Position numbers and translations under genes: made by a program. Below are positions 128-41,186 of a stretch of DNA of 41,186 nt, piece by piece. The DNA lies in IMG/VR virus record IMGVR_UViG_3300024921_000002, positions 1-41,186 of that record; one strand, 5' to 3'. How positions within the stretch are numbered: position 1 is the first letter of the stretch; each line of letters opens with the position of its first letter. Source of the stretch: a virus. The notes under the pieces are model-generated. The model did not search any database, had not been told where the DNA came from, and saw only the letters and a program-made list of their open reading frames with translations.

Positions 128-325
128 GAATGATTGCTTAAATATCAACGGGTAACAGGTTATAACAAAATTTCTCTAAAATGCTTTAAGAATGCGGAAT
201 CCCGGCATTATTTGATTTCCTTCCAATATCAAGCTATAACATATAATATCAAGTTGAGACGCGCTTTTTATGTACATAATTGAGTACATAAACTGCGTAT
301 TTTTTATTGCTTAGAAATTATGTAC
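29..325. promoter_or_regulatory. Cluster of GTACATA motifs upstream of int (candidate Int arm-type sites / int regulatory sites; attP region)
   Basis: GTACATA occurs at 29-35, 41-47, 272-278 and 284-290, and inverted (TATGTAC) at 319-325. TTGAGTACAT (280-289) and ATGTACTCAA (320-329) are exact reverse complements. The non-coding stretch 40933..41059 plus 1..339 is the only long gene-free segment next to int. Confidence 0.4.
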
Positions 326-339
326 TCAAGGCTGAAAAA

Positions 340-1554
340 ATGGCGATTACTGACGCATGGCTAAAGGCGATTAGCGGCAAGGGCAGGGACGTCCTTGCGG
401 AAAAAACAGACCGTGACGGCTTAAGCGCCAGGGTATCAAAAAAAGGCAAGATCGTATTCCAGTTGCGCTTTCGGCATGACGGCAGGCAGTCCAGGTTAGA
501 TCTCGGGACTTATCCGTTGATTACGTTAAAACAGGCTAGGGAGGAAGCCCTAAAGCTCAAGGCTGAGCTTGAAAAAGGTCATGATCCACGCATCATCAAA
601 AAGACTGATAAGCTCAAGAATATTGAAGTGTTAAGCTTGGAAGATGTTTTTGAGAAATGGTATGAGGCATACTGCATACACAATAAAAAGATTCATCGTC
701 AGATAAAGCGATCGTTCGAGATATATGTTTTTCCTGAGTTTGGAGGCATCCCTCCGGACAGAATATCAACCGATAACTGGGTAACGCTACTAGAAGGGGT
801 TAAGAAAAAGTACCCGGCAATCGCTGCTCGATTGCTGATAAATGCCAAACAGATGTTGTCGTGGGCAGTTCGTCGCAAGCTTGTTTCAAGTAATGAGATT
901 TTTCAGATCAGTGCAAAGGCGGATCTGAGTATTACAAAAAAGAAGAGCACTCGCTCACTTGATGACGAAGAAATCCGCATGTTGCTTATGGCGCTGGATG
1001 GGTCGAGGATGTCGGCAAAGAATCGCATGTTTGTGCGGTTATGCCTGGTCTATGGATGTCGAAATACCGAGCTAAGAGTGGCCAAGACGCGGTATTTAGA
1101 TTTCTCTAAAATGATTTGGACGACGCCGCCTGAAGATCACAAAACAGGCAAATTATCAGACAAACCCCTGATCAGGCCAATTACGCCATACACTAAACAG
1201 CTGTTTGAAGAGTGTATCTCCCTATCTGGCCCCAGTGAATACTTGTTCACTAATGAAGGCAGCGGCGAGGTCATGGGAGTTGGTGCGCCGCTTTCCCTGC
1301 CTTACAATGTCATGCAGTGGTTACGAAAGAACAAAGGCTATGAAATGGCGCACTGGTCGATTAAGGCGCTGAGAAAAACGGCAAGAACAAATTTTTCGAC
1401 GCTTACCCAACCGCATATAGCTGAAATTATGCTGGGTCATAAGCTACCCGGTGAATGGGAGGTTTATGACCAGCACCACTATTTAGTTGAGCAGGCGGGC
1501 TGCCTTATTAAGTGGGTAGAGCGACTAAATAGTATAGTTCAAGCTGATTCTTGA
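340..1554 (+). CDS. int: Tyrosine integrase, P4-type (DUF4102-like N-terminal arm-binding domain)
   Basis: Track ORF 307..1554 trimmed to the first ATG (AAGG 8 nt upstream). N-terminus: MAITDAWLK...LSARVSKKGKIVFQLRFRHDGRQSRLDLGTYP...LKQAREEALKLKAELEKGHDP. C-terminal core shows GCRNTELR, ALRKTARTNF and LGH...EVYDQHHY. Confidence 0.9.
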   Translation: MAITDAWLKAISGKGRDVLAEKTDRDGLSARVSKKGKIVFQLRFRHDGRQSRLDLGTYPLITLKQAREEALKLKAELEKGHDPRIIKKTDKLKNIEVLSLEDVFEKWYEAYCIHNKKIHRQIKRSFEIYVFPEFGGIPPDRISTDNWVTLLEGVKKKYPAIAARLLINAKQMLSWAVRRKLVSSNEIFQISAKADLSITKKKSTRSLDDEEIRMLLMALDGSRMSAKNRMFVRLCLVYGCRNTELRVAKTRYLDFSKMIWTTPPEDHKTGKLSDKPLIRPITPYTKQLFEECISLSGPSEYLFTNEGSGEVMGVGAPLSLPYNVMQWLRKNKGYEMAHWSIKALRKTARTNFSTLTQPHIAEIMLGHKLPGEWEVYDQHHYLVEQAGCLIKWVERLNSIVQADS

Positions 1555-2315: not shown

Positions 2316-2482
2316 GCACTCACTCTGCGCTTTTCATCTACGCACCCGGCTAACAGCAGCCGGAAACGCTTAGGGCGTTTTTTGTGCCAGTTCAGCAAGT
2401 TTTGCTCTGATTCCCCGCTGATTCTGACAAACTCGGCGAGGCTATCTAGCCCCGCCTTTTTGCATTGCTCTGATGGTGTCAT
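2312..2482 (-). CDS. Small (56 aa) putative DNA-binding protein, below the ORF-track length cutoff
   Basis: Hand translation: MTPSEQCKKAGLDSLAEFVRISGESEQNLLNWHKKRPKRFRLLLAGCVDEKRRVSA*. It is HTH-like, and its stop TAA lies in the ATAACGC box like its neighbours. The RBS is weak. Confidence 0.4.
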   Translation of the reverse strand: MTPSEQCKKAGLDSLAEFVRISGESEQNLLNWHKKRPKRFRLLLAGCVDEKRRVSA

Positions 2483-2498
2483 TAAATGTTTCTATCTT

Positions 2499-2855
2499 TT
2501 AAAAATTAATTCTTTCGTTGTACATTGTGCTGCAATATATTCTTCCTTTTGAGCCTGGTCGTTGAGTTAATCTATGTCCTGGTTTTACTTCAGTTTCGTT
2601 GTAAAATGTATTTGTTTCAAATCCAGGCATTTTTTTATCAAATAATTTGACCATATCAACTGATTCTAAAAACAAGTTTTCTATCTCTTCATTTCTGTTT
2701 ATCGCGTAACCGTAATACGTGTTTTTTAAATTTTTATCTATCAGAGTAAAGCAGTCGAGATTCATTGTTATTTCATATGCGCCTTGATTCATATTAAATT
2801 TAACAATTTTATCGATTAGTTTTTTTTCATTTTCTGTTAATTCTAATTTAGCCAT
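2499..2855 (-). CDS. Hypothetical protein, visibly A+T-rich orphan
   Basis: 118 aa. GGGAG lies 6 nt upstream of the ATG. Composition is clearly A+T-richer than the flanks. No motif recognised. Confidence 0.55.
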   Translation of the reverse strand: MAKLELTENEKKLIDKIVKFNMNQGAYEITMNLDCFTLIDKNLKNTYYGYAINRNEEIENLFLESVDMVKLFDKKMPGFETNTFYNETEVKPGHRLTQRPGSKGRIYCSTMYNERINF

Positions 2856-2871
2856 TTTCTACTCCCAACTT

Positions 2872-2890
2872 GTTAGGCGGGCTGCCTAAC
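2872..2890. repeat. Perfect hairpin GTTAGGC-gggct-GCCTAAC
   Basis: Read directly. The 7-bp arms match the GTTRRRY / RYYYAAC consensus pair. It lies between a TATAAT box (minus strand, 2905..2900) and the ATG at 2855. Confidence 0.6.
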
Positions 2891-3017
2891 TTGCTTACTA
2901 TTATACACAAATATATTGTGTTATACGCAATTATTTTGTGTAAGCGTAAAATAGGGCATAACACAACGCTCGTGCGGGACGCCAGCGATAAAGCCGCTGT
3001 CGCCCCACAGCTAAGCG

Positions 3018-3224
3018 TTATACCGCCGACTCGTTCATGTGAGATTTACGCGCTTTTGCGTGACCTTTTTGTACACATTTAGGACAGTAATCGAGATCGC
3101 CGTAATTTTTCCAGCCGCTGTCTTTAAGCTCCGCTTTAAGTCGTGCTTTTGTATATCCGGGGATGTCTGTATATTCGGTCATGCCGCACGCATCGCATGT
3201 ATACTGCTGCCAGGTTTCAATCAT
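3018..3224 (-). CDS. Small zinc-ribbon protein
   Basis: Trimmed from the TTG at 3242 to the ATG at 3224 (MIETWQQYTCDACG...CPKC). Two CxxC pairs. The stop is embedded in GTATAACGC. Confidence 0.55.
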   Translation of the reverse strand: MIETWQQYTCDACGMTEYTDIPGYTKARLKAELKDSGWKNYGDLDYCPKCVQKGHAKARKSHMNESAV

Positions 3225-3226
3225 GT

Positions 3227-3309
3227 ATAACTCTATGGTCAAATGGGACGCGCCTAAAGTTCAGCGCGTTGTTCGGTTTCGTCTTGCACGCTTTTTACCA
3301 GGGCGTTAT
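3227..3309 (-). repeat. Structured intergenic palindrome, copy E1
   Basis: Plus strand: ATAAC TCTAT GGTcAAA ... TTTACC AGGGC GTTAT. The TAA of ORF 3306.. lies within the right box, and the left box ends 2 nt from the ATG at 3224. Confidence 0.6.
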
Positions 3310-3482
3310 GCCCGTCTATTCCACCATTTCACCGCCTCATCATCTGTTAAGTGCTTCGGCGTCTCCGCTCCGCATCGGCAGGCAATACCATCACCTGCGT
3401 ACCCCATACAAAACCTCGGCGTTTTATCGGGCTGTTTTCCGCAAAACGGGCATGGTTTAAATTCGGTTTTTGGCTGCTCCAT
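3306..3482 (-). CDS. Lar-family restriction-alleviation-like protein
   Basis: MEQPKTEFKPCPFCG...CRCG...TDDEAVKWWNRRA shows the Lar family pattern (N-terminal CPFCG, C-terminal ..AWNRRA). The start was chosen at the third ATG, with GGAG 9 nt upstream. Confidence 0.65.
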   Translation of the reverse strand: MEQPKTEFKPCPFCGKQPDKTPRFCMGYAGDGIACRCGAETPKHLTDDEAVKWWNRRA

Positions 3483-3498
3483 AGTGTGCATCTCCAGC

Positions 3499-3581
3499 AT
3501 AACAAATCATTCAACGTGAGCCGGTTAGAGCTCACGGTATTGTTCAGCCGCGCGGTGCGGCCACGTTAATTCAAGCGTTAT
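3499..3581 (-). repeat. Structured intergenic palindrome, copy E2
   Basis: Plus strand: ATAAC AAATC ATTcAACGTGaGCC ... GGCCACGTTAAT TCAAGC GTTAT. The stop of ORF 3578.. lies in the right box. Confidence 0.65.
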
Positions 3582-3787
3582 ACGCTTACAGTGCGCGCCA
3601 TTATTCCGTCCCTTACCCATCGTCGCACGTATAGTTCACATCCTGTAGTCAGGCCGACGCCATTCGCCATGCCTAAATGCGTTGCTTTCTTTTTGCATCC
3701 ACAATGGCAACGCCTTCGGCTTCGTGCGTCAACTTTTTTCATATATCTCTGATGCTCGGTTGCTGAGCCGTATTGCCCAAAACTCAT
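3578..3787 (-). CDS. Small Cys-rich hypothetical protein
   Basis: 69 aa (..RRRCHCGCKKKATH..TGC..). The stop lies in GTATAACGC. Confidence 0.5.
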   Translation of the reverse strand: MSFGQYGSATEHQRYMKKVDARSRRRCHCGCKKKATHLGMANGVGLTTGCELYVRRWVRDGIMARTVSV

Positions 3788-3803
3788 AAATTATTCACAG
3801 CCT

Positions 3804-3897
3804 ATAACTCTTAGTTCAAGTGCGACAAGCCGACATTCGCGGCTTGCGTGTTTTACTCATTCTGTCGTGGGCGGCTTGCGCCTTAACACGGCGTTAT
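3804..3897 (-). repeat. Structured intergenic palindrome, copy E3
   Basis: Plus strand: ATAAC TCTTA GTTcAAGtGCGaCAAGCCG ... CGGCTTGCGCCTTAAC ACGGC GTTAT. The stop of ORF 3894.. lies in the right box. The left box is 16 nt from the ATG at 3787. Confidence 0.7.
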
Positions 3898-4634
3898 ATT
3901 GCAAGTTCAAGTTGCTCATTACCAATAGCCCACAAAGCAGAGCTATTATTACATTCAATACGCTCTGCAATTACCGCAGCTCGTTGTGATGATGTTGGCG
4001 GGATATAAGACCCGAACCGGCTTAAACTGCCACTATTTACAGCGGCGTTCGTGCTGTCAGCTGATGCTAATGGGAGTCGCGTAAAAATATCAGGGTCAAG
4101 CATTCTCAAGCCATGTAATTTACATTTTGGCCTTCCATATTGATCACAGCAAACACTTATAACTATCGACATCCTGCGCCACCATTTTGATGTTCCAGGG
4201 CTTTTGTATTCACCAGAACTACCTAGTGCAACCGTCTGAAAGTTGTCAATCAAATATTCAAGCCATTCAAAACTTTCGTGCATGTGCCACACCGGAACGC
4301 CTTTTGCTCTTCCGCCGATCCTGATCCACTTCATTACCCAGTCAACATTGTCGGCTTCAGTTCCATCAATGATGTCGGGAATTAATGCCCAGTCAAACCC
4401 TGGATGCTGATAAATCGAATGTACCCACTTCCAATAGGCATCAAAATCAATTTCCCCTTTTCCAGCTTTCCAGTGGCTAAAAGCGCCGTTGTCCAATACA
4501 AAACTCTGGCAGTATTCGAGAACCGCCCCAACATCATCTTTTCTTCCGAATGGAATTAATGCGTGTCGCCCGACAAGGAATTTTGCCGTATCTTGTCGCG
4601 TACCACCTATCGGCGTGCCGTGATAATGTATCAT
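3894..4634 (-). CDS. DpdA / tRNA-guanine-transglycosylase-like protein (candidate 7-deazaguanine DNA transglycosylase)
   Basis: 246 aa. An ordered motif series resembles TGT/DpdA: FVLDNGAFS (cf. DSGAF/DSGGF), ALIPDIIDG, VPVWHM, VALGSSG, KLHGLRML and SADSTNAA. Recognition is by eye only. Confidence 0.5.
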   Translation of the reverse strand: MIHYHGTPIGGTRQDTAKFLVGRHALIPFGRKDDVGAVLEYCQSFVLDNGAFSHWKAGKGEIDFDAYWKWVHSIYQHPGFDWALIPDIIDGTEADNVDWVMKWIRIGGRAKGVPVWHMHESFEWLEYLIDNFQTVALGSSGEYKSPGTSKWWRRMSIVISVCCDQYGRPKCKLHGLRMLDPDIFTRLPLASADSTNAAVNSGSLSRFGSYIPPTSSQRAAVIAERIECNNSSALWAIGNEQLELAI

Positions 4635-4656
4635 CTAAAATCACCCAATTTGCAAT

Positions 4657-4745
4657 ATAACTCTTAGTTCAAGCGGACAAGCCGCCATTCGATTGTTTCT
4701 GTTTTAAAGGTTCCGTGCGCGGCTTTCCGCTTAACATAGCGTTAT
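4657..4745 (-). repeat. Structured intergenic palindrome, copy E4
   Basis: Plus strand: ATAAC TCTTA GTTcAAGCGGAcAAGCCGC ... GCGGCTTTCCGCTTAAC ATAGC GTTAT. This is a 17-bp stem with two bulged C. The stop of ORF 4742.. lies in the right box. Confidence 0.7.
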
Positions 4746-4930
4746 ACGGTGTCTGTCTGCCGCATCACCCATTCATGATTTATCGGCTGGTATCCACCAT
4801 CTCGCTGTATCGCAATCCGGCTTCCGCAGTCTACGCACTCATGATATGTAGTATGGTTGATGTCTTTTACAAGTTTCCAGCGGCACCAAAACCAGCACCG
4901 GTTGCTTGTTTCGAGTTTGATCTTTTTCAT
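4742..4930 (-). CDS. Small Cys-containing hypothetical protein
   Basis: Trimmed to MKKIKLETSNRCWFWCRW...CVDCGSR (62 aa). The stop lies in GTATAACGC. Confidence 0.5.
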   Translation of the reverse strand: MKKIKLETSNRCWFWCRWKLVKDINHTTYHECVDCGSRIAIQRDGGYQPINHEWVMRQTDTV

Positions 4931-4941
4931 GGTTATACCGT

Positions 4942-5057
4942 ATAACTCTCTGGTCAAGGCGACCCGCCGCCCTAAGCGCGGTTCGCAGGTTGTGTTTTTC
5001 AAAGTTCTTCATGCTCGGGGGCTTCCGCTAGCGGCGGTCGCCTTACCGTGGCGTTAT
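4942..5057 (-). repeat. Structured intergenic palindrome, copy E5
   Basis: Plus strand: ATAAC TCTCT GGTcAAGGCGAcCCGCCGC ... GCGGCGGTCGCCTTACC GTGGC GTTAT. It has two bulged C at the same positions as in E4. Confidence 0.7.
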
Positions 5058-5092
5058 ACCCTGGCTTTTTGGTGACAATTGGCTCGCCAAAA

Positions 5093-5212
5093 TCACGCAT
5101 AAGTTGGCCTTTTACTCTCAGTTTTGCTCAGCGCTTTTATTTCATTCATGAGCACATCTGCCATGTACTCTATCGCGACAATCTGTGCATCTACAATTTC
5201 ATTTTCAGTCAT
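5093..5212 (-). CDS. 39-aa ORF (MTENEIVDAQIVAIEYMADVLMNEIKALSKTESKRPTYA*)
   Basis: Hand translation. The ATG lies 3 nt after element E6. It ends at a TGA, and the same frame continues 12 sense codons to the TAA embedded in the ATAAC box of E5 (5054-5056). Confidence 0.3.
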   Translation of the reverse strand: MTENEIVDAQIVAIEYMADVLMNEIKALSKTESKRPTYA

Positions 5213-5215
5213 GTG

Positions 5216-5300
5216 AACAACTCTTAGTTCAAAGGCGACGCCGTTCAGCGTCGCGGTATTGCTTAAAGTTCAGTGTCGGCTCGCTTTAACACGGCGTTGC
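5216..5300 (-). repeat. Structured intergenic palindrome, copy E6 (degenerate boxes ACAAC / GTTGC)
   Basis: Plus strand: ACAAC TCTTA GTTcAAAG... ...CTTTAAC ACGGC GTTGC. The T-to-C change in the left box is matched by an A-to-G change in the right box. Confidence 0.55.
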
Positions 5301-5314
5301 CAGACATTTTGTGA

Positions 5315-5572
5315 TCATACCGCTCCTTGATTATCTTCCCAGGCGGTAATAGCTTCTATTGCCCACCTGTTTTGACTTCCCTTGCCTTTAAATTTTGGCG
5401 GTGGCAATGGGTTTTCTTCACGGGTCATCCAGCGCCATAGCGTCATTTTCGATACTTTGAAGCGCCGCATCAAATCGTTTGTTGTCCAGTATCCTGATGT
5501 TTTAATTGCTGTTCTGGATCTTGTTAGTTCAAATGGTTCATCAGCGGTTAATATATTAGGTGATGGTTTCAT
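5315..5572 (-). CDS. AlpA/excisionase-family DNA-binding protein
   Basis: ..TTNDLMRRFKVSKMTLWRWMTREENPLPPPKFKGKGSQNRWAIEAITAWE matches the AlpA/Xis HTH_17 pattern. The start was chosen at M10 of the track ORF; 5599 is the alternative. Confidence 0.7.
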   Translation of the reverse strand: MKPSPNILTADEPFELTRSRTAIKTSGYWTTNDLMRRFKVSKMTLWRWMTREENPLPPPKFKGKGSQNRWAIEAITAWEDNQGAV

Positions 5573-5576
5573 ATCT

Positions 5577-5780
5577 TCAAACCTTTGATGGCTGGGCAAT
5601 CAATAATCTCGCTGCATCAGCTTTATCGCAGCAAAATTGGCAGCGCTTTGAGTTGTTGCCAGGAGTTATCTTACCCAGCTGTTCTATTGGTCGGTCATGG
5701 CCGCAAGACCGGCAATGAAAATATTTTTTCAGCGGTTGTTTTATTGAGATTTCGGCGGTTGTCGAATTTGGGTTCATCAC
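5577..5780 (-). CDS. Small zinc-ribbon protein
   Basis: 67 aa with CRSCGH...CQFCC. An ATGA overlap joins it to the stop of the methyltransferase gene. Confidence 0.5.
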   Translation of the reverse strand: MMNPNSTTAEISIKQPLKKYFHCRSCGHDRPIEQLGKITPGNNSKRCQFCCDKADAARLLIAQPSKV

Positions 5781-7435
5781 GCCGCATCCTGTTCAAGGTT
5801 TTCGGATGGTTGCGGGTAGTTGGCCCGACACAAGGCTTCCATTAAATCCGGAGGAACACTATTGCCGCATAGCCTAACTTGGGTGGACTTGGTAAATTTT
5901 CTGCCGTCATGTCCATGTTCTATGCCGTAATCGGCTGGGAATCCCTGTGCCCTGAATAGCTCGGCCGGTTGCAGCATTCGTAATCCAATGTCGACAATGA
6001 CGTGCGGCTGGTTATGGATCATGACGGTAACCAGTGCCATGCGGTCTTTGGTGGTGATGGTGGACATCGGCTCTTTAATATTGCCCAGTTGTCCGCCTTC
6101 GCTGTAATAGCGCATTAGGAAGGCAGCAACCTTTAACGCTCCTTCCTGATGTTCCGGCGTTAATGTGCATTCGATCAAGCCGAGGCGGTTTTCTGTGGTG
6201 ATAGTCGCAACCGGGTCATGCATTGATCTTGATCGGTTTGATTCGTCGGTGTAGTAGCTGGAAATAAAGGCCGATACGACAGCCGTTTTCCCGGCGCCTG
6301 ATGTCATTATTGTTGGTGCCGGTTCAGATACTGGCTGGCCGATGCTGTTGCCAAATTGTCTTGATAAATATGCCATTACGGTGCCGTGATGTTCTCCGCC
6401 GGCGCTGATGGTTCGTAGCGGTTCTTTAATATCTCGCCCATCACAGTGGTTGCGTAGGTGGACAAGATGGGCGGCTTTAACAAGCTTAGGCAGTCCAAGG
6501 GCGAACTCACCACCTTTAGTTGCTGAGGTTATCGTGCGTAAAGGCTCGGCTGTCGAGTGGGCAGTTACCGAGCCATTGAAGTGCGCGATCGGCACGATGA
6601 ATGGGTCGGCGCTTTCCAGTACGTATCGGCTCAGGCCTTTGGCGATCCGGCGCAGGGTGGCATCGGCCAGCGGCTTTTTACGCTCGAAAATGCTGTTGAT
6701 CGGGAACGTGAAATCAATGCACTCGGCTGCGCTGCGCCATTTTTGCTGGCCTTTATCGGGTGCTTTGAAGTGGGTAGGTATCGGCCATTGGATTGGCTGT
6801 CCGTCCCGCCGGGCGATCATGAATAAACGCTCGCGGGTGGTAGGTGCGCCAAAGTCAGCAGCGCATAGGGTTTTATCTTCTACAGTGTAGCCCAGTGCCC
6901 GTAAGGCTGAGCAAAACCGCTGCCATGTTTGCCCGGCACGTTTACGGTCCGGAATAAGGTGTTGCTGCTGCACAGGCACTCGCTCACCTGGCGCTGATAC
7001 GCTGCCGTCGAGCTTGATTACCCGTCCGGTAGTTTTATCGCGCTTGGCGACCAGCGGTCCCCATTTTAGTATTTGGGTGACGTTTTCAAGGCTGATGACA
7101 TCAGGCAAGACTTGCCCGGCCCAGCGATAGCCTACCCAAGCTAATCCACGCAGTTTTTTACTGCGCGGTTGTCCGCCAGCGGCTTGGCTGTGATGGGTAC
7201 AGTCGGGCGACAGGTGTAACCAGCCGACGGGGCGGCCTTGGGTTGCGCCTTTTGGGCAAACTTCATAGACATCGGCGATAAAATGCCGGGTGTGCTTGTG
7301 GTTGGCCCTGTGCATTGATAGCGCATCATCGTTGTGGTTGATGGCGATGTCGGGATGTCGGCCCGTGGCTTGGAAAATCCCGGTGCTGACACCGCCGCCG
7401 CCGGCGAATATATCGACAATGAGTTTATTTTTCAT
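5777..7435 (-). CDS. DNA (cytosine-5) methyltransferase with enlarged, internally repetitive target-recognition region
   Basis: Trimmed to MKNKLIVDIFAGGGG (motif I). SPDCTHHSQA is the motif IV Cys, ISLENV is motif VI, TTRERLFMIA is motif VIII and GNSVPP is motif X. Five (E/D)PxxTI(T/S/M) repeats lie between motifs VIII and IX. Confidence 0.85.
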   Translation of the reverse strand: MKNKLIVDIFAGGGGVSTGIFQATGRHPDIAINHNDDALSMHRANHKHTRHFIADVYEVCPKGATQGRPVGWLHLSPDCTHHSQAAGGQPRSKKLRGLAWVGYRWAGQVLPDVISLENVTQILKWGPLVAKRDKTTGRVIKLDGSVSAPGERVPVQQQHLIPDRKRAGQTWQRFCSALRALGYTVEDKTLCAADFGAPTTRERLFMIARRDGQPIQWPIPTHFKAPDKGQQKWRSAAECIDFTFPINSIFERKKPLADATLRRIAKGLSRYVLESADPFIVPIAHFNGSVTAHSTAEPLRTITSATKGGEFALGLPKLVKAAHLVHLRNHCDGRDIKEPLRTISAGGEHHGTVMAYLSRQFGNSIGQPVSEPAPTIMTSGAGKTAVVSAFISSYYTDESNRSRSMHDPVATITTENRLGLIECTLTPEHQEGALKVAAFLMRYYSEGGQLGNIKEPMSTITTKDRMALVTVMIHNQPHVIVDIGLRMLQPAELFRAQGFPADYGIEHGHDGRKFTKSTQVRLCGNSVPPDLMEALCRANYPQPSENLEQDAA

Positions 7436-7607
7436 TATTGCGGCTCTCTTTCTCAGAACTAATGATGCGGAATCTCCGCTCATCCAGATCTAGCCCCAGT
7501 GGGGATCGGTCGCCAGTGCAATAAATAAAAGTCTTAGGCATCGACGTCACATTTTCTGGGAGCGGTAGTATGTCTTCAATAATTAGCCGTTGTGATTTTC
7601 CGTCCAT
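7425..7607 (-). CDS. Hypothetical 60-aa protein
   Basis: The ORF fills the gap between the muramidase and methyltransferase genes, and its start abuts the muramidase stop. No motif recognised. Confidence 0.3.
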   Translation of the reverse strand: MDGKSQRLIIEDILPLPENVTSMPKTFIYCTGDRSPLGLDLDERRFRIISSEKESRNNEK

Positions 7608-8161
7608 TACACTATAACCTCTCTGAATGATTCTGCGCGAGCAAACCAGCCATTTTTAAAAGCTGCTTGTGTTGGGTCGGTATTAATGATTTCCTGATAG
7701 TAATGCAGGCGACGGTCGACGATGTTGTTTATAAAATGTTTACCAAGCTCTGTAACAGCACGGGTTGTCGCTGTAATGGTTTTTACGCCGATAATTCCAT
7801 CCGGCGAAGATTGGCTATAAGAGGCCGAAACTAATGCAGTTTGTAAGATTTTTACGGAGCCTCTACGTCCATGATTTACGGCCATGTCGAGCATGATGGG
7901 CTGTATCAGCGTAGGTAAACTGATGATATTGGGCCGGACGTAATACAGGGTATAGTAGATTTTTTCAGCCAGAGCGGGGGTTACGGCTTTTATTTCCGCT
8001 ATGGTGACATCCATTGGTATGTTGGATGATGGTCGTCTAAAATACTCGGCGTAACTCTTGGCGGTGATGCCGTATTGTGTCGGACCGCCTTTATCAGCAG
8101 GGTGGTTAACATAGCCGCCTTCTTTCGCGATGATGGCGGCGATGATTTGTTTTATGGTCAT
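7607..8161 (-). CDS. GH108-family muramidase with C-terminal PG_binding_3-like domain (endolysin candidate)
   Basis: N-terminal IIAKEGGYVNHPADKGGPTQYGIT is the GH108 signature with the catalytic EGGY. The C-terminus carries RRLHYYQEI...FKNGWFARAESF. Confidence 0.8.
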   Translation of the reverse strand: MTIKQIIAAIIAKEGGYVNHPADKGGPTQYGITAKSYAEYFRRPSSNIPMDVTIAEIKAVTPALAEKIYYTLYYVRPNIISLPTLIQPIMLDMAVNHGRRGSVKILQTALVSASYSQSSPDGIIGVKTITATTRAVTELGKHFINNIVDRRLHYYQEIINTDPTQAAFKNGWFARAESFREVIV

Positions 8162-10391: not shown

Positions 10392-10628
10392 TTATATTTG
10401 TTGCAGGGTTCTTAATGTTGTCGCTAATTCGGTTTCGGTGACATGGAGTCGGTTTGCCAACGCGGCTTTGTTGTCGCTGTCCAGGTTGTTGCACCAGAGC
10501 AGCACGGATAAGCGGTCTTGGCCTGTTAGAGTCTTTTTGGTATCTTCGATATAGGCCGCATTAAGGCCGCGCTCTTCAAATACGGCTATGATTTGCAGTG
10601 CCAGCCAATCAAGTGTTTTTTTAGCCAT
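10392..10628 (-). CDS. Hypothetical early protein (78 aa)
   Basis: Preceded by leader module L1, with AGGAGCG 5 nt from the ATG. Its 5' 93 nt are duplicated at about 11341..11435. Confidence 0.6.
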   Translation of the reverse strand: MAKKTLDWLALQIIAVFEERGLNAAYIEDTKKTLTGQDRLSVLLWCNNLDSDNKAALANRLHVTETELATTLRTLQQI

Positions 10629-10690
10629 GGTTATCGCTCCTGTTTTTTGTTGTTTTTAATGTCGGGTTACGCTGTGCTAACCTGACCTAC
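10629..10690 (-). repeat. REP-like hairpin + A/C-rich leader + SD module, copy L1
   Basis: In minus sense: GTAGGTCAGGTTAGCACAGCGTAACCCGACATTAAAAACAACAAAAAACAGGAGCGATAAC, followed by ATG. Confidence 0.75.
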
Positions 10691-10843
10691 TTGGCTTTTA
10701 GTTCAATCAATAAAGGATTTTTATGTCGCTACTCATTAACCCGGTTCATTGCTACGCTGTTCATCCCTCTGATGCAGGCAGAATTGCTTATATTGATGGG
10801 CTTTGGAACCCAACACATACGCTGCCATATGAGGGCGAGATCA

Positions 10844-11032
10844 TTACTCGTCCGTTTTTGGTTGATCCAAAGACCCGGCAACCAATTCCTGTACGGGTGA
10901 TTGAGATTCAAGAGCATCTCGAAATTCAACCTCATACCCTCGTTGTCGTAGTGACTCGATCAGACCAGTGTCATTAGGCGTGATTTTGTGTGAGCCAATA
11001 ATCACTACTTCTGTTCTTTCGGTTGCTGTCAT
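10844..11032 (-). CDS. Hypothetical early protein (62 aa)
   Basis: Preceded by leader module L2. It overlaps the plus-strand ORF 10723..10977 antisense. The minus-strand choice rests on the shared leader and operon direction. Confidence 0.45.
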   Translation of the reverse strand: MTATERTEVVIIGSHKITPNDTGLIESLRQRGYEVEFRDALESQSPVQELVAGSLDQPKTDE

Positions 11033-11100
11033 TGGGTTGGTTCCGTTTTTGTTGTTTTTAATGTCGGGTAGGGTGAAGATTTACCCCGGCCTGCTTGGCT
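11033..11100 (-). repeat. Leader module, copy L2 (different hairpin, same A/C-rich spacer)
   Basis: Shares ...CGACATTAAAAACAACAAAAAC... with L1, L3 and L4. The hairpin is CGGGGTAAATCTTCACCCTACCCG. Confidence 0.6.
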
Positions 11101-11103
11101 TGG

Positions 11104-11274
11104 CTAATTTGCGTTGATCATGTGTTCGTAGCCGCTTTGGCAGCGGATTTTGCAAACGCCCCACCCCTCGGCTATTTTTTCTTTTGCCATACGGATGGCA
11201 TGCCCCATGTCCCAAGCCTCAATGCTGAGGGATGATTCTTGGCCGCCTTGCAGCATTAAATAATATTGGTTCAT
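11104..11274 (-). CDS. Hypothetical early protein (56 aa), below the ORF-track cutoff
   Basis: Hand translation: MNQYYLMLQGGQESSLSIEAWDMGHAIRMAKEKIAEGWGVCKIRCQSGYEHMINAN*. Preceded by leader module L3. Confidence 0.45.
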   Translation of the reverse strand: MNQYYLMLQGGQESSLSIEAWDMGHAIRMAKEKIAEGWGVCKIRCQSGYEHMINAN

Positions 11275-11337
11275 GTTGGTTGCTCCGTGTTTTGTTGTTT
11301 TTAAATGTCGGGGTACGCTGCGCTAACCCGACCTACT
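11275..11337 (-). repeat. REP-like hairpin + leader module, copy L3
   Basis: In minus sense: GTAGGTCGGGTTAGCGCAGCGTACCCCGACATTTAAAAACAACAAAACACGGAGCAACCAAC, followed by ATG. Confidence 0.75.
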
Positions 11338-11435
11338 TGCTTTTGGGTATCTTCGATGTAGGCCGCATTAAGGCCGCGCTCAGCAAATACGGCTATGATT
11401 TGCAGTGCCAGCCAATCAAGTGTTTTTTTAGCCAT
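11301..11435 (-). pseudogene. Truncated paralogue of ORF 10392..10628 (first about 31 codons), reading on into repeat L3
   Basis: MAKKTLDWLALQIIAVFAERGLNAAYIEDT matches the full-length copy MAKKTLDWLALQIIAVFEERGLNAAYIEDT. The frame then runs into the REP-like element (..QKQVGRVSAAYPDI*). Confidence 0.6.
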
Positions 11436-11437
11436 GG

Positions 11438-11497
11438 TTACGCTCCTGTTTTTTATTGTTTTTAATGTCGGGTTACGTTGTCGTTAACTCGACCTAC
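11438..11497 (-). repeat. REP-like hairpin + leader module, copy L4
   Basis: In minus sense: GTAGGTCGAGTTAACGACAACGTAACCCGACATTAAAAACAATAAAAAACAGGAGCGTAAC, followed by ATG. Confidence 0.75.
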
Positions 11498-11518
11498 GTG
11501 GCTATTTTGCCTCAGTGG

Positions 11519-11626: not shown

Positions 11627-12547
11627 CTATGGATTAAATAGATCGATCTGACGGTTTGCTGAGCGGTGTTCTATCACTTCAAGTATCGAATACTCTGACT
11701 TCATTCCTTTCATGGTGAGCCATTGTAGGAGCTGAACCTTGGCTTTTAAGATGTCGTTTTTGGCAAAAACTTCTTCGCTTGCATTAACGCGAGCTAAAAA
11801 GTCTTCATCCAGTATTTCAGCATAAAATGTTTGAATACCGTCGGTAAAGCGCCATTTATTTCCATCTGCAAATGACGCATTGATGATTTGCAAGCTGACG
11901 ATCGTCGTTTGGTCGTTTATTTTTTCATCGCCAGGATCGGGGGCGACAAAATAAATTGACTCCCTCTTATCTATCATTAAGAGCGGTTTTCCGGGTGCAT
12001 CAGGATCAACGATTGCGAATGACTCAATACCATCACGCAGCAGGGGCTTGGTTATGATGTTTTCAAATGCTTGTCTTATTTTATGGTTTTGCAGAAGGGC
12101 AAGGGCGGTCTTTTCAATATCATAATGATCATCATCAATATAAACTCTAACGATTCCATTGTCAGCAACTTCTGTTTTAGTGATTTTCCTATTCCGAACC
12201 CAACGCAAAAAACCTATTAATGTGCCGCCAGTATAGTTAGCAAGGCCAATAATACCGGCTGCATTTAAAACAGCCGTTGTATTGCCATGATTAAATATGT
12301 CAATAGCGTCTAAGATTAGGCTTTTAGCGGTAGCAACCATTTCGACGCCAAAGCAACCTGTTTTAAATGATCCCTTTACGCTGACGCCTATTTTAAATTT
12401 ATCGCCATATAGCGAGTTTCCAACCTCTTCCATAAGGCTTCCGATAGCCATTAGAGCGGGTGCAAGGTCATGCACATCCATCTCGTGGTTATCGAGAGCA
12501 GGTCCGTCATAGATTACTTGGAATTTAGCTGGCTTCATGTCAATCAT
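11627..12547 (-). CDS. Hypothetical 306-aa protein, no recognisable domain (cassette gene D)
   Basis: Long clean ORF in an A+T-richer segment. AAGG lies 9 nt upstream and a terminator follows immediately downstream. No catalytic motif recognised. Confidence 0.7.
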   Translation of the reverse strand: MIDMKPAKFQVIYDGPALDNHEMDVHDLAPALMAIGSLMEEVGNSLYGDKFKIGVSVKGSFKTGCFGVEMVATAKSLILDAIDIFNHGNTTAVLNAAGIIGLANYTGGTLIGFLRWVRNRKITKTEVADNGIVRVYIDDDHYDIEKTALALLQNHKIRQAFENIITKPLLRDGIESFAIVDPDAPGKPLLMIDKRESIYFVAPDPGDEKINDQTTIVSLQIINASFADGNKWRFTDGIQTFYAEILDEDFLARVNASEEVFAKNDILKAKVQLLQWLTMKGMKSEYSILEVIEHRSANRQIDLFNP

Positions 12548-15189: not shown

Positions 15190-15658
15190 TGGGGTATTTT
15201 GGTGTGAAGTCTGATTTGTTTGAGTTGCAGTCCTATAGGTTGGGCATGTTGTTTGAAGAGCAAAGATAATTTTAACCCCCACAGTCCTGTCTAGTAATAG
15301 GGCTGATTACCTAGGTAGGTTTACCTATGATTCCAGATAGTTATCAACCGGCAGATTGGCGTAATACGACGAGCGCGGACGCGGACAACCAGCAAATTGG
15401 TGTCGGCTTTAATTTGTTAGACGGCAGCATTATGAGGCTGGCTTTGTCATTTGATGGTGAAAATGTATGACCGCCTACTAAGTCGTCAAGGGCATGTTGC
15501 GGCATGTGATCTACCAAGGCTGTCGTCTTGATAGATCACATGCCATCGGTTGCCTTTTTGTTTGATAAAGAATGTTCCTGCTTGGGTTTTGTGAAGGTAG
15601 GTCATGGCGGATCTGATGTGGTTGGTTAAATTTTTAAGCATAGCAGTAAAGGGTATTT

Positions 15659-19691: not shown

Positions 19692-20230
19692 CTTTTATGA
19701 GCCAAACCGCCTTTGCCGACCACATCGGCGCTAACCGCAGCTACGTCACCCAGCTTAAAAACGCTGACCGCTTAGTCATGGAAGATGGAAAAGTAAACGT
19801 CGAAGCCTCCATCCAGCGTATAGCCGAAACCAAAGACCCATCCAAAGAAGGTGTGACCAAGCGGCATGAGCAGGAGCGTGAGCGTAAAGAACAGGATGCA
19901 GGAAAAGAGAGTTCTGCGGTTAGTGGCTCAGGCAGTCGCTATCAATCAGCCAAAGCCAGACGAGAAGAAGCTAACGCCGAATTAACTGAAATCGATCTGA
20001 AAACGCGTCGCGGTCAATTGCTGGTAGCCGACGAAGCCAAAGCCTGCGTAGCCGATGGCGACACCATCATCCGCAACCGGCTCGAATCCCTGCCCGACAT
20101 CCTAGCGCCGCAACTGGCCGCAGAAACCGACGAACAGAAAATCCGCTCCATGTTGATGGATCACATTGAATCCCTGCTCGGCGACTTGTCGCGCAGTTTT
20201 TTACACCTTAGCAAAGTAGAGAAAACATGA
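19688..20230 (+). CDS. terS: Terminase small subunit, Nu1-like
   Basis: An N-terminal HTH (SQTAFADHIGANRSYVTQLKN), a charged linker and a C-terminal segment (AELTEIDLKTRRGQLLVADEAK...LESLPDILAPQL) are collinear with lambda Nu1. It lies upstream of a GpA-type TerL. Confidence 0.65.
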   Translation: MTFMSQTAFADHIGANRSYVTQLKNADRLVMEDGKVNVEASIQRIAETKDPSKEGVTKRHEQERERKEQDAGKESSAVSGSGSRYQSAKARREEANAELTEIDLKTRRGQLLVADEAKACVADGDTIIRNRLESLPDILAPQLAAETDEQKIRSMLMDHIESLLGDLSRSFLHLSKVEKT

Positions 20231-21087
20231 ACTTATCTATCTCATTTAGTGGTGGAAAAACGTCGGCATATATGACTAAGTGGCTGCTTGATAATAAATT
20301 AAACGATTTCGACAACGTTGTTATTACATTTGCAAACACAGGGCAGGAACTTGAGGAAACATTAGAGTTTGTAAATCGCTGTGACAAGGAATGGAATTTA
20401 GGAGTGGTCTGGCTAGAGGCTCTTGTCGATCCAGTGAAAGGAAATGGAACCAAGTTTCGACGCGTGACATTTGAAACAGCATCACGCAATGGTGAGCCAT
20501 TTGAGGAGTATATAAAAAAACATGGTATTCCGAATCAAGCATTCCCGAAATGTACGTCTGAGCTGAAGCTTGCTCCCATGCGTTCATATTTACGGTCATT
20601 GGGTTGGAAAAATGGAACCTATAAAACCGCGATTGGAATCAGGATTGATGAAATGGATCGCGTAAGTTCGAACATGGAAAAAGAAAATCTTATCTACCCA
20701 TTGATTGAATATACAAAGGCAACAAAAGAGATGATTAATCTCTGGTGGGGACGTCAGTCATTTAATCTAAATATCATGGAGCACCAAGGGAATTGTGCAT
20801 GGTGCTGGAAGAAAAGTAAGCGGAAGTTGCTAACCCTAGCTGTTGATACGCCTGAAGTATTTGAATTTCCAATGCGGATGGAAGATCAGTATCGATTTGC
20901 TGGGCCTTGGCAAGATCCAAGTGGAGTTGGACGGCTTTTTTTCAGAAAAAATACCAGCACGAAACAATTGCTGGAAGAATCAAAATTGCCCTTTGAAAGA
21001 TGGAAGCCTGCTGCGGTCAATTTCGACTTATTTAATTATGAGCTTGATTCGGCTGGCGGCTGCTCTGAAAGTTGTGAGGTTTATTAA
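20227..21087 (+). CDS. PP-loop ATP-pyrophosphatase / PAPS-reductase-family protein
   Basis: N-terminal SFSGGKTSAYM PP-loop (SGGKDS-like). Cys clusters GNCAWCWKK and GGCSESCE. Visibly A+T-richer than terS and terL. ATGA overlap with terS. Confidence 0.65.
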   Translation: MNLSISFSGGKTSAYMTKWLLDNKLNDFDNVVITFANTGQELEETLEFVNRCDKEWNLGVVWLEALVDPVKGNGTKFRRVTFETASRNGEPFEEYIKKHGIPNQAFPKCTSELKLAPMRSYLRSLGWKNGTYKTAIGIRIDEMDRVSSNMEKENLIYPLIEYTKATKEMINLWWGRQSFNLNIMEHQGNCAWCWKKSKRKLLTLAVDTPEVFEFPMRMEDQYRFAGPWQDPSGVGRLFFRKNTSTKQLLEESKLPFERWKPAAVNFDLFNYELDSAGGCSESCEVY

Positions 21088-28618: not shown

Positions 28619-28960
28619 ATGGAAAAGATGATGCCCGAAAAAGATCCGCTTTCATACTCGCTAATCACCTATGCCTGGGTGTTCGGAATATCGCTATTCG
28701 GTGGTCTTGCCGGATATTTTCGTAAAGTAAAAAGCGGATTGATCAGTCGGTTTTCGTTGATTGAATTGGTTGGTGAAATGTTTATAAGCGCCTTTGTTGG
28801 CGTAATGACCTTTTATTTGTGCGAGTGGGCCGATATACCGGGTCCATTGGCCGCCGCTTTAATCGGCATCGCTTCTCACATGGGCAGCCGGGCAATCTTT
28901 ATATTTGAAACCGCGGCTGATAAGGCATTTCAGCGGTTTGTTAATGTTGGAAAGCTATGA
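28619..28960 (+). CDS. LydA-like holin (holin superfamily III)
   Basis: MPEKDPLS...GLAGYFRKVKSG...VGEMFISAFVGVMTFYL...AALIGIASHMGSRAIF is collinear with P1 LydA (MPEKHDLL...YLRGRYNGG...). The start could be 28619, 28628 or 28631. Confidence 0.55.
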   Translation: MEKMMPEKDPLSYSLITYAWVFGISLFGGLAGYFRKVKSGLISRFSLIELVGEMFISAFVGVMTFYLCEWADIPGPLAAALIGIASHMGSRAIFIFETAADKAFQRFVNVGKL

Positions 28961-41059: not shown

Positions 41060-41186
41060 CCTGCAATGCAGGTAAATTTACAATTAAGTACATATTCGAG
41101 TACATAAACTGAATGAACGATTATTTAAATTCCATACAAGCTAAGGAAACAAAGAGACGCAGGACTTTTGCTATCATCTCCCACCC
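41060..41186. repeat. Terminal direct repeat, copy B (identical to 1..127)
   Basis: Read directly from the sequence. Confidence 0.9.

Follow-up and report, generated by a model that had tools for sequence, protein, structure and literature searches.

The viral record IMGVR_UViG_3300024921_000002 of IMG/VR (positions 1 to 41,186, 41,186 nt; the window in what follows) carries a short minus-strand gene resembling dpdA, whose product would exchange guanine in phage DNA for a 7-deazaguanine. This raises the question of what such an enzyme could do in a phage with no genes for making the base. The original prediction, drawn from the sequence alone, was that the gene encodes a transglycosylase of the TGT/DpdA type conferring protection against restriction, that FolE, QueD, QueE and QueC are missing from the genome, and that the gene is one exchangeable cassette in a palindrome array. 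Here, we explored these points by similarity searches, structure prediction and comparison with related loci. We found that the evidence supports membership of the protein in the phage DpdA family, in the singleton subgroup, and that its gene lies in an array of hairpin repeats at which related loci differ in gene content.

Family, conserved residues and predicted fold

The open reading frame (ORF) matched PHROG 887, 'queuine tRNA-ribosyltransferase', at 2e-65 over residues 1-227. Homologues were found by tblastn in 153 phage records, including Pseudomonas phage Epa33 (62% identity), lambdoid Salmonella and Stx phages (~46%), Pantoea phage MED16 (37.6%, E = 3e-32), Pseudanabaena phage Pam5 (36%), HK106 (35%), Salmonella phage 7-11 (33%, E = 3e-22), and Seuratvirus and Queuovirinae DpdAs annotated as '7-deazaguanosine inserting enzyme' (~28%). 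The DpdA of Escherichia phage SeppeHuegi (Seuratvirus), encoded beside FolE, QueD, YhhQ, QueC and QueE, matched the ORF at 7e-13; weaker matches were obtained to DpdAs in FolE-QueD-QueE-QueC clusters of Seuratvirus, a Queuovirinae Vibrio phage and a Stenotrophomonas phage. In the Seuratvirus CAjan, deletion of dpdA led to the loss of all dPreQ0 (PMC6884629). The clade is large, with 5,995 clusters at 90% identity and 1,091 at 50% identity (E ≤ 1e-3). The PHROG match, the similarity to DpdAs inside preQ0 clusters and the structural matches described below to phage proteins annotated alike all support the DpdA call of the original prediction.

The 246-residue protein contains, in the order predicted, the six motifs LDNGAFS (residues 47-53), IPDIIDG (85-91), VPVWH (113-117), ALGSSG (136-141), LHGLRM (173-178) and SADST (191-195). 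Across 57 diverse homologues, which go down to 25% identity and include DpdA1 and the proteins of 7-11 and MED16, residues D48, H174, D193 and S194 were invariant. Conservation of at least 90% was seen at H5, A51, P86, D87, I89, G91, N96, P114, V115, H117 and E120, and further at G138, R154, G167, G175, L176, P188, S191 and E227. The six motifs are more than chance strings, as most of their residues are conserved at this level. The gene is also under purifying selection: in comparison with four relatives, pN (nonsynonymous) was 0.16-0.27 against a saturated pS (synonymous) of 0.78-0.93 per site. Because the synonymous sites are saturated, pN and pS are given instead of dN/dS.

The candidate active-site set comprises D48 (general acid/base), F52, D87, H117, L176 and D193 (nucleophile). 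D48-x3-F52, D87, H117, L176 and D193 follow the order, and nearly the spacing, of D95/F99, D130, H181, L236 and D256 in bacterial DpdA. In the crystallised Salmonella Montevideo enzyme, D95 serves as general acid/base and D256 as nucleophile (PMC10164549). Judged by motif order and spacing rather than by superposition, the two sets of residues would be equivalent.

The AlphaFold2 model (pLDDT 88.4, pTM 0.87) has an alternating beta/alpha topology, which gives the protein a predicted (beta/alpha)8 TIM-barrel core. In Foldseek searches, the best matches in the PDB were all TIM barrels, and among viral models (BFVD) the best matches were phage 'queuine tRNA-ribosyltransferases' at E 1e-9 to 1e-6 and TM 0.6-0.7, with phage DpdA-like proteins over a TM range of 0.6-0.85. 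Thus, the expected fold was recovered with confidence, although the top PDB matches were generic barrels.

Missing precursor genes and the proposed function of the enzyme

The two ends of the window carry an exact duplication of 127 nt (1-127 and 41060-41186), and the assembly is circularly closed with a unique length of about 41,059 bp (~41.06 kb). Because the two ends are identical, the window is the entire circular genome and a genome-wide claim of absence is fair. The junction between the integrase gene and gpD is also crossed by an independent metagenome contig, which runs from integrase to gpD. Among the 69 called ORFs, no Pfam match was found to GTP_cyclohydroI, PTPS, QueC, radical-SAM QueE or QueF. 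A six-frame tblastn of SeppeHuegi FolE, QueD, QueE, QueC and YhhQ against the window gave a best E-value of 0.28, compared with 7e-13 for the DpdA of the same phage. The absence of FolE, QueD, QueE and QueC was thereby borne out, and the complete genome holds no gene for preQ0 or G+ synthesis, as is the rule for singleton DpdAs.

Hutinet (2019; PMC6884629) has already described 76 singleton-DpdA phages, and has proposed that they rely on host preQ0 or on uptake. In the same study, singleton DpdAs clustered apart from pathway-linked DpdAs, and a gamma-proteobacterial singleton cluster was described. The window gene is therefore a further member of a published class and does not define a new one. 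The earlier suggestion that the phage scavenges the base from its host, or uses a different base, accords with the published singleton hypothesis. The two relatives tested both carry dADG and almost no dPreQ0 (PMC6884629, PMC8306585), which makes the option of a different base reasonable as well. By liquid chromatography-tandem mass spectrometry, dADG amounted to ~0.02% of G in the DNA of Salmonella phage 7-11 (PMC6884629) and to ~0.13% of G, with trace dPreQ0, in that of Pantoea phage MED16 (PMC8306585). Apart from Clostridium and Mycobacterium, the hosts of singleton-DpdA phages were found to have a complete set of queuosine genes (PMC6884629). In the literature after these papers on prophage and singleton DpdAs, we found nothing that settles their function.

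Homologues were present in 80 loci from sequenced genomes. The nearest (67%) are in marine Gammaproteobacteria, many others in Pseudomonas, Cupriavidus and Paraburkholderia, and some in Acidobacteriota, Planctomycetota and Bacteroidota. In all loci with gene calls that we inspected (L003-L008), the homologue lies in a temperate-phage early or accessory region near exo/DUF3799, ssb, xis and int. In 85 of 88 homologue loci no pathway gene occurs within 10 kb. Table 1 lists loci with a pathway gene or a YhhQ/VUT-family transporter near the homologue. The full-length homologues of the three exceptions (L068, L076 and L060) are about 47% identical to the window DpdA, and the Pam5 homologue is two genes away from a VUT/YhhQ-family transporter. 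Through these adjacencies the clade is tied to 7-deazaguanine metabolism and precursor salvage. Their occurrence in a few members suggests that precursor-supply genes were gained or lost repeatedly within one clade. As a whole, the singleton clade is very large, overwhelmingly prophage-borne, spread over several phyla and occasionally linked to the pathway or to a transporter.

Taking all of the evidence together, we consider it probable that the gene encodes a singleton phage DpdA that installs a host-derived 7-deazaguanine and forms one unit of an anti-restriction cassette array. In the double-displacement reaction of TGT and DpdA, D193 would attack C1' of the target deoxyguanosine in double-stranded phage DNA and guanine would be expelled. 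D48 would act as general acid/base, and D87, H117, F52 and L176 would hold the base. A free 7-deazaguanine would then attack the covalent intermediate and become installed in the DNA. Because the phage has no FolE, QueD, QueE, QueC or transporter, the incoming base (preQ0 or its amide ADG) would have to come from the host, presumably from its queuosine pathway. If the two tested relatives are a guide, only a small fraction of G would be replaced, probably in a specific motif and most likely as dADG. The gene is apparently transcribed with the leftward early operon, together with the C5-methyltransferase, xis and the other cassettes. Promoter and terminator scans found no sense-strand terminator and no convincing promoter inside the array, so that co-transcription is the simplest reading. 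With such early transcription, the target of the enzyme would be phage DNA undergoing replication, following either induction or infection. The gene would thus be one unit among small accessory genes with an anti-restriction theme, which are gained and lost at structured hairpin repeats.

The closest known systems are MED16 gp38 (vB_PagS_MED16) and 7-11 AEK81947. They share with the window protein the PHROG, the length class (234-261 amino acids), 33-38% identity over 83-89% of the query, the invariant residues, the lack of phage preQ0 genes and a proposed dependence on the host for the precursor. However, these two phages are virulent, have measured dADG (0.13% and 0.02% of G) and carry no repeat-flanked array, whereas the window phage is temperate and known from sequence. 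DpdA1 of Seuratvirus and Queuovirinae (CAjan, SeppeHuegi and 9g-type) has the LDxGAFS, LDG, PxxH, GxxG and ADS/CDS motifs in common with the window protein (7e-13, 28% identity), and is likewise unseen by Pfam TGT and by PDB sequence searches. However, it is encoded with FolE, QueD, QueE and QueC (with or without YhhQ and Gat-QueC), has a C-terminus ~60 residues longer, and substitutes dPreQ0 or dG+ for about 25-30% of G.

The bacterial DpdA of Salmonella Montevideo (7UI4) resembles the window protein in its TIM barrel and in an equally ordered and spaced set of three Asp, a His, a Phe and a Leu (PMC10164549). However, it has 436 residues, of which 128 form an insertion behind the nucleophile, depends on the DpdB ATPase and acts together with DpdC-K. 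The window protein gave no PADLOC DpdA match and no profile match to bacterial DpdA, and it is not the DpdA of a bacterial Dpd system. TGT (PF01702) presumably shares ancestry and reaction chemistry with the window protein. It differs in its zinc-binding Cys cluster, in being about 130 residues longer and in its tRNA substrate, where the window protein would act on DNA; the latter is clearly not a TGT proper.

Several points weigh against the proposed DpdA function. The dADG of MED16 blocked none of the restriction enzymes tried (PMC8306585), which leaves the benefit uncertain, and modification is very low in the tested singleton phages (PMC6884629, PMC8306585). Protection against restriction, which the original prediction had assumed, is thus not established for the singleton subgroup. 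Mycobacterium phage Orion, which has a singleton DpdA and a host without the pathway, contains no 7-deazaguanine (PMC6884629). The DpdB-like ATPase partner that bacterial DpdA requires in vitro is missing: neither DpdB nor DpdC was found among the ten early-region and PP-loop proteins scanned, and the whole-window Pfam search gave no ParB-like domain. The likely host is suggested by a single related Methylobacter tundripaludum prophage, and its supply of preQ0 is an assumption.

The remaining points concern the link to TGT. The Pfam TGT, NCBIfam and PADLOC DpdA models gave zero matches to the protein, PF01702 even at E ≤ 10. The top 50 PDB matches of Foldseek were generic TIM barrels (TrpA, DHDPS and others, E about 1e-2), with no TGT and no 7UI4 among them. 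Three family profiles of increasing diversity gave chance matches only against PDB sequences, and no solved TGT or DpdA. Comparison with E. coli Tgt by hhalign gave E 0.024-0.36 and a probability of at most 2%, with a single sequence without alignment depth as template; the best-scoring run was out of register, and Tgt TDSGGFQ was aligned with LDNGAFS in a non-significant alignment. The large C-terminal insertion and the zinc site of TGT and bacterial DpdA are also absent. D193 is trailed by just 53 residues, and none of the five Cys (42, 162, 163, 171 and 228) is conserved across the family, so there is no CxCxxC...H zinc subdomain. Because the profile, hhalign and Foldseek searches missed the TGT and DpdA structures, the proposed link to the TGT superfamily rests on transitive homology and on the published HHpred result for MED16 DpdA (99.18% probability to T. 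maritima TGT 2ASH; PMC8306585).

We do not read the failed TGT profile searches as evidence against the DpdA call; sequence tests of this kind lack sensitivity. E. coli Tgt itself reaches bacterial DpdA 7UI4 at just 1.7e-4, and the Seuratvirus DpdA has no PDB sequence match either. The PF01702 profile had been proposed as a check of the call. The DpdAs of SeppeHuegi, 7-11 and MED16 are likewise unmatched by Pfam TGT, and because these three fail alike, the missing match is uninformative and cannot serve as a refutation.

The same fold and machinery could also serve a diverged activity, that is, the direct insertion of ADG or CDG, or a sparse motif-specific mark with a role other than restriction evasion, which may be the countering of another defence system, a packaging mark or regulation. 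We regard this as possible, but as much less probable than the function proposed above. It would fit the dADG, with little or no dPreQ0, of both tested singletons, which encode no DpdC-like amidohydrolase (PMC6884629, PMC8306585). ADG is an intermediate of the QueC reaction, and no DpdC or DpdB homologue was seen in the proteins scanned here. However, the clade members beside QueC and QueE, or beside FolE, QueD and QueE, suggest the usual preQ0-type precursors. The separate clustering of singletons (PMC6884629) and their ~28% identity to DpdA1 point to divergence, whereas D87 and H117, the residues of base recognition, are kept as in preQ0-inserting enzymes. Although 0.02-0.13% of G is insufficient for general restriction protection, the context of the array, with its Lar-like protein and methyltransferases, is anti-restriction.

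It is rather improbable that the gene is intact but silent cargo of a fast-turnover cassette region, unexpressed or deprived of host precursor. In favour, Orion has a singleton DpdA and yet no 7-deazaguanine in its DNA (PMC6884629); against it, the hosts of singleton-DpdA phages other than Clostridium and Mycobacterium carry all queuosine genes (PMC6884629). A closely related prophage (L113, see below) holds a 5'-truncated remnant without the D48 motif, which indicates that dpdA is dispensable and decaying; against this, purifying selection is strong, and the catalytic residues are fully conserved in the window copy and in thousands of relatives. Finally, an unrelated small TIM barrel with a superficial likeness to DpdA (glycosidase- or aldolase-like, or a DNA glycosylase for superinfection exclusion) would explain the missing Pfam, NCBIfam and PADLOC matches, the TrpA, DHDPS and generic barrels in the PDB and the failure of every profile to reach TGT or 7UI4, but it is very improbable given pairwise E-values of 7e-13 to 1e-8 to DpdAs inside preQ0 clusters of unrelated phages, the same database blind spots of pathway-linked DpdAs, the clade members adjoining QueC, QueE, FolE, QueD or YhhQ, the 99.2% HHpred match of the MED16 homologue to TGT (PMC8306585) and the other folds of the antiviral glycosylases described so far (bioRxiv 10.1101/2025.10.29.685425). 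The idea of a prophage defence glycosylase was dropped, as that 2025 preprint covers other folds and lends it no support.

The hairpin array and its cassettes

The palindrome array is real. Seven imperfect-hairpin copies of 73-125 nt lie between small minus-strand genes at about 2.95-5.3 kb, and the array spans from xis to the gene at 2499-2855 (Table 1). In gene orientation, a copy consists of (G)TATAAC, a 5-nt spacer, a GTTAAG-type box, a variable GC-rich core, a CTTGAAC-type box, a 5-nt spacer and GTTATA(C). The gene upstream of a copy ends at the TAA of that copy's first box, and several copies fold into a single long imperfect hairpin. Five occurrences of the conserved 3' box were counted, with 0.14 expected. 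Rfam gave no match in 2400-6000.

Table 1. Positions of dpdA, the repeats, the cassettes and neighbouring genes in the window, and of precursor-related genes near homologues in other loci
Feature	Sequence	Position	Strand	Evidence or remark
dpdA-like gene, singleton phage DpdA, 246 amino acids, ATG start	window	3894..4634	-	PHROG 887, motifs, conservation
Repeat E1	window	5216..5302	-	degenerate terminal boxes GGCAAC / GTTGTT; first of array, just downstream of xis
Repeat E2	window	4938..5061	-	long variant, 124 nt
Repeat E3	window	4654..4749	-	directly upstream of dpdA (gene sense); one long imperfect hairpin, z = -3.4
Repeat E4	window	3801..3900	-	directly downstream of dpdA (gene sense); dpdA stop TAA inside ATATAAC terminal box
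Repeat E5	window	3503..3586	-	divergent 3' box
Repeat E6	window	3224..3311	-	
Repeat E7	window	2950..3025	-	short, divergent, last of array
Cassette, 64-residue zinc-ribbon protein, Lar-like restriction alleviation	window	3306..3500	-	phrog_599, 4e-10
Cassette, 69-residue Cys-rich protein	window	3578..3787	-	phrog_28528
Cassette, 62-residue Cys-rich protein	window	4742..4930	-	no family match
Cassette, 68-residue CxxC...CxxC protein	window	3018..3224	-	no family match
Excisionase, AlpA/Xis-like	window	5315..5599	-	upstream array boundary, same leftward transcription
C5-cytosine DNA methyltransferase, 568 amino acids	window	5777..7483	-	Pfam; second DNA-modification gene, about 1.1 kb upstream of dpdA
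Phage tyrosine integrase, P4-type, Arm-DNA-bind_3	window	307..1554	+	Pfam; not an integron integrase
FolE, QueD, QueE	L068	13824-15474		about 3 kb downstream of homologue
QueC and QueE	L076	6830-8175		adjoining homologue
YhhQ-like transporter	L060	9376-9801		adjoining homologue
Pathway gene or YhhQ/VUT-family transporter	L250	2435-2968		listed among loci with such a gene near homologue

The array has an anti-restriction flavour, since a Lar-like protein and the C5-methyltransferase are among the neighbours of dpdA. The methyltransferase is unusually long, with its Pfam domain in three stretches, which may reflect a large insertion or a target-recognition region of multiple specificity.

We searched for the repeat with a two-box pattern and an nhmmer profile; a single-box pattern scan gave mostly chance matches and was replaced. 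The repeat was also present at 53 further loci of viral or metagenomic origin, with 79 copies and arrays of up to 4 (including L113, L118, L154, L179, L223 and L243). Only one of these 53 loci, L113, has a DpdA homologue, and the repeat is absent from all other DpdA-homologue loci. In the loci without DpdA, other genes are flanked by the repeats, mostly DNA methyltransferases, with DPPY/SPPY methyltransferases among the examples.

The L113 locus (IMGVR_UViG_648276688_000003) shows how the array has changed. Its dpdA copy (2896-3426) has 91.5% DNA identity to that of the window and is 5'-truncated, with a 176-residue ORF lacking the D48 motif. This remnant abuts the E6-equivalent copy, and the two cassettes found at 3306-3787 of the window are missing. 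The switch point falls within a shared ...GCGTTAT box. Recombination at the terminal box would be expected to leave such a boundary, but homologous recombination inside the repeat would produce the same picture. The same repeat around other genes in relatives, together with the cassette loss at repeat boundaries in L113, supports the view of dpdA as an exchangeable cassette.

The form of the repeats raises the question of whether they are attC sites. For covariation analysis, 57 distinct copies of 73-128 nt were aligned. AAC and GTT were invariant, with a geometry of 7-5-6/7...7-5-7. In the proposed R-box, L-box and stem helices, 93% of cells were paired, compared with 30-40% when the register was shifted. 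Compensatory double changes occurred in 14 of 22 pairs, and the covariation score was reached by none of 500 shuffles. The L-box helix was 98% paired around an invariant unpaired G (alignment column 116, in the 3' inner box). The geometry of the repeats (7-5-7...7-5-7, AAC/GTT, extrahelical base and variable centre) is that of integron attC sites, but an attC identity is unproven. Boxes, spacers and length agree with those of attC sites (57-141 nt), and structure is kept over sequence, with an extrahelical base. However, most copies differ from RYYYAAC/GTTRRRY at one position, and by the unpaired-base rule the genes are on the strand that cassettes do not usually occupy, both of which count against attC. 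A few copies have the archetypal integron box GCCTAAC or GTTAGGC, and none of those listed has both. Near the arrays, within the short loci fetched, we found no integron integrase (IntI), just ordinary phage integrases. The hairpins could also act at the RNA level.

Of 10,705 phage genomes, 17 have been reported to contain CALINs, with methyltransferases as frequent cargo (PMC9892861). In these attC arrays, as in the window, short co-oriented ORFs each precede an imperfect palindrome bounded by AAC...GTT, DNA-modification genes are frequent cargo, and the phage has no integron integrase (PMC9892861). The window array differs in that most copies have GTATAAC/GTTATAC and the genes are on the opposite strand, and the likeness is one of geometry. 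A DpdA cassette is unreported in phage CALIN or attC arrays. We consider it unlikely, though worth stating, that the repeats are functional attC-type sites, which would make the array of this phage of methanotroph-like hosts an integrase-less set of anti-restriction genes (DpdA, the Lar-like protein and DNA methyltransferases) shuffled between phages by a host integron integrase.

The phage genome and its likely host

By its content (Pfam, all 69 called ORFs), the phage is a temperate myovirus. The long leftward early operon includes xis, the C5-methyltransferase, a GH108 protein, RdgC and a CI-like repressor, and the primase/helicase is transcribed rightward. These are accompanied by a DUF1441 small terminase, a lambda-type large terminase and portal, a ClpP-capsid fusion and a P2-type contractile tail module. 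Near-identity DNA searches with the window gave no close match in phage or E. coli collections. The tail module is 75-80% identical to that of a Methylobacter tundripaludum prophage, and because of this resemblance a Methylococcales-type (Methylobacter-like) host is likely.

Other features of the genome were also observed. A PP-loop 'PAPS reductase'-like protein (20227-21087, plus strand) is encoded between the small and large terminase genes (PHROG 424, 4e-52; PADLOC SspD-like, 1e-14), and may represent another DNA-modification function; neither Pfam nor tblastn identified it as QueC. Similar PP-loop proteins occur near DNA methyltransferases in L004 (12750-13538) and L113 (7413-8255). In the early region, a 306-residue protein (11627-12547, minus strand) matches the PADLOC candidate defence family PDC-S42 at 2.9e-90 and is likely a prophage-encoded defence gene. 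The GH108/PG_binding_3 muramidase-like gene (7607-8161, minus strand) lies inside the early leftward operon, an unusual site for a lysis enzyme, with the holin far off at 28619-28960. An 18-nt inverted repeat (15501-15544; 94% complementary, 8-nt loop) close to the switch between the leftward and rightward operons is a candidate operator. A second repeat family, unrelated to the hairpin array, occupies 10533-11504 with three to four copies of a ~70-nt unit, TTTTTGTTGTTTTTAATGTCGGGTTACGCTG...TAACCTGACCTAC, with a hairpin. This region includes a 101-nt duplicate of 96% identity (10533-10633 and 11340-11440), and very small ORFs lie among the repeats.

Among phage 7-deazaguanine enzymes, no group is larger or less well understood than the singleton DpdAs. 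The inserted base, the target motif and the benefit of a trace modification are questions that surround all of them, to which the window gene alone adds little. The more original aspect of this locus is not DpdA itself but the attC-like repeats that make dpdA swappable: a structured, covarying repeat around single-gene units with an anti-restriction theme offers a concrete mechanism for swapping accessory genes, including DpdA. If the repeats were functional attC-type sites, the cassettes might also be exchanged with host chromosomal integrons, and DpdA would be without precedent among DNA-hypermodification enzymes as an integron-type cassette. The singleton state of DpdA would then be a direct outcome of one-gene cassette mobility.

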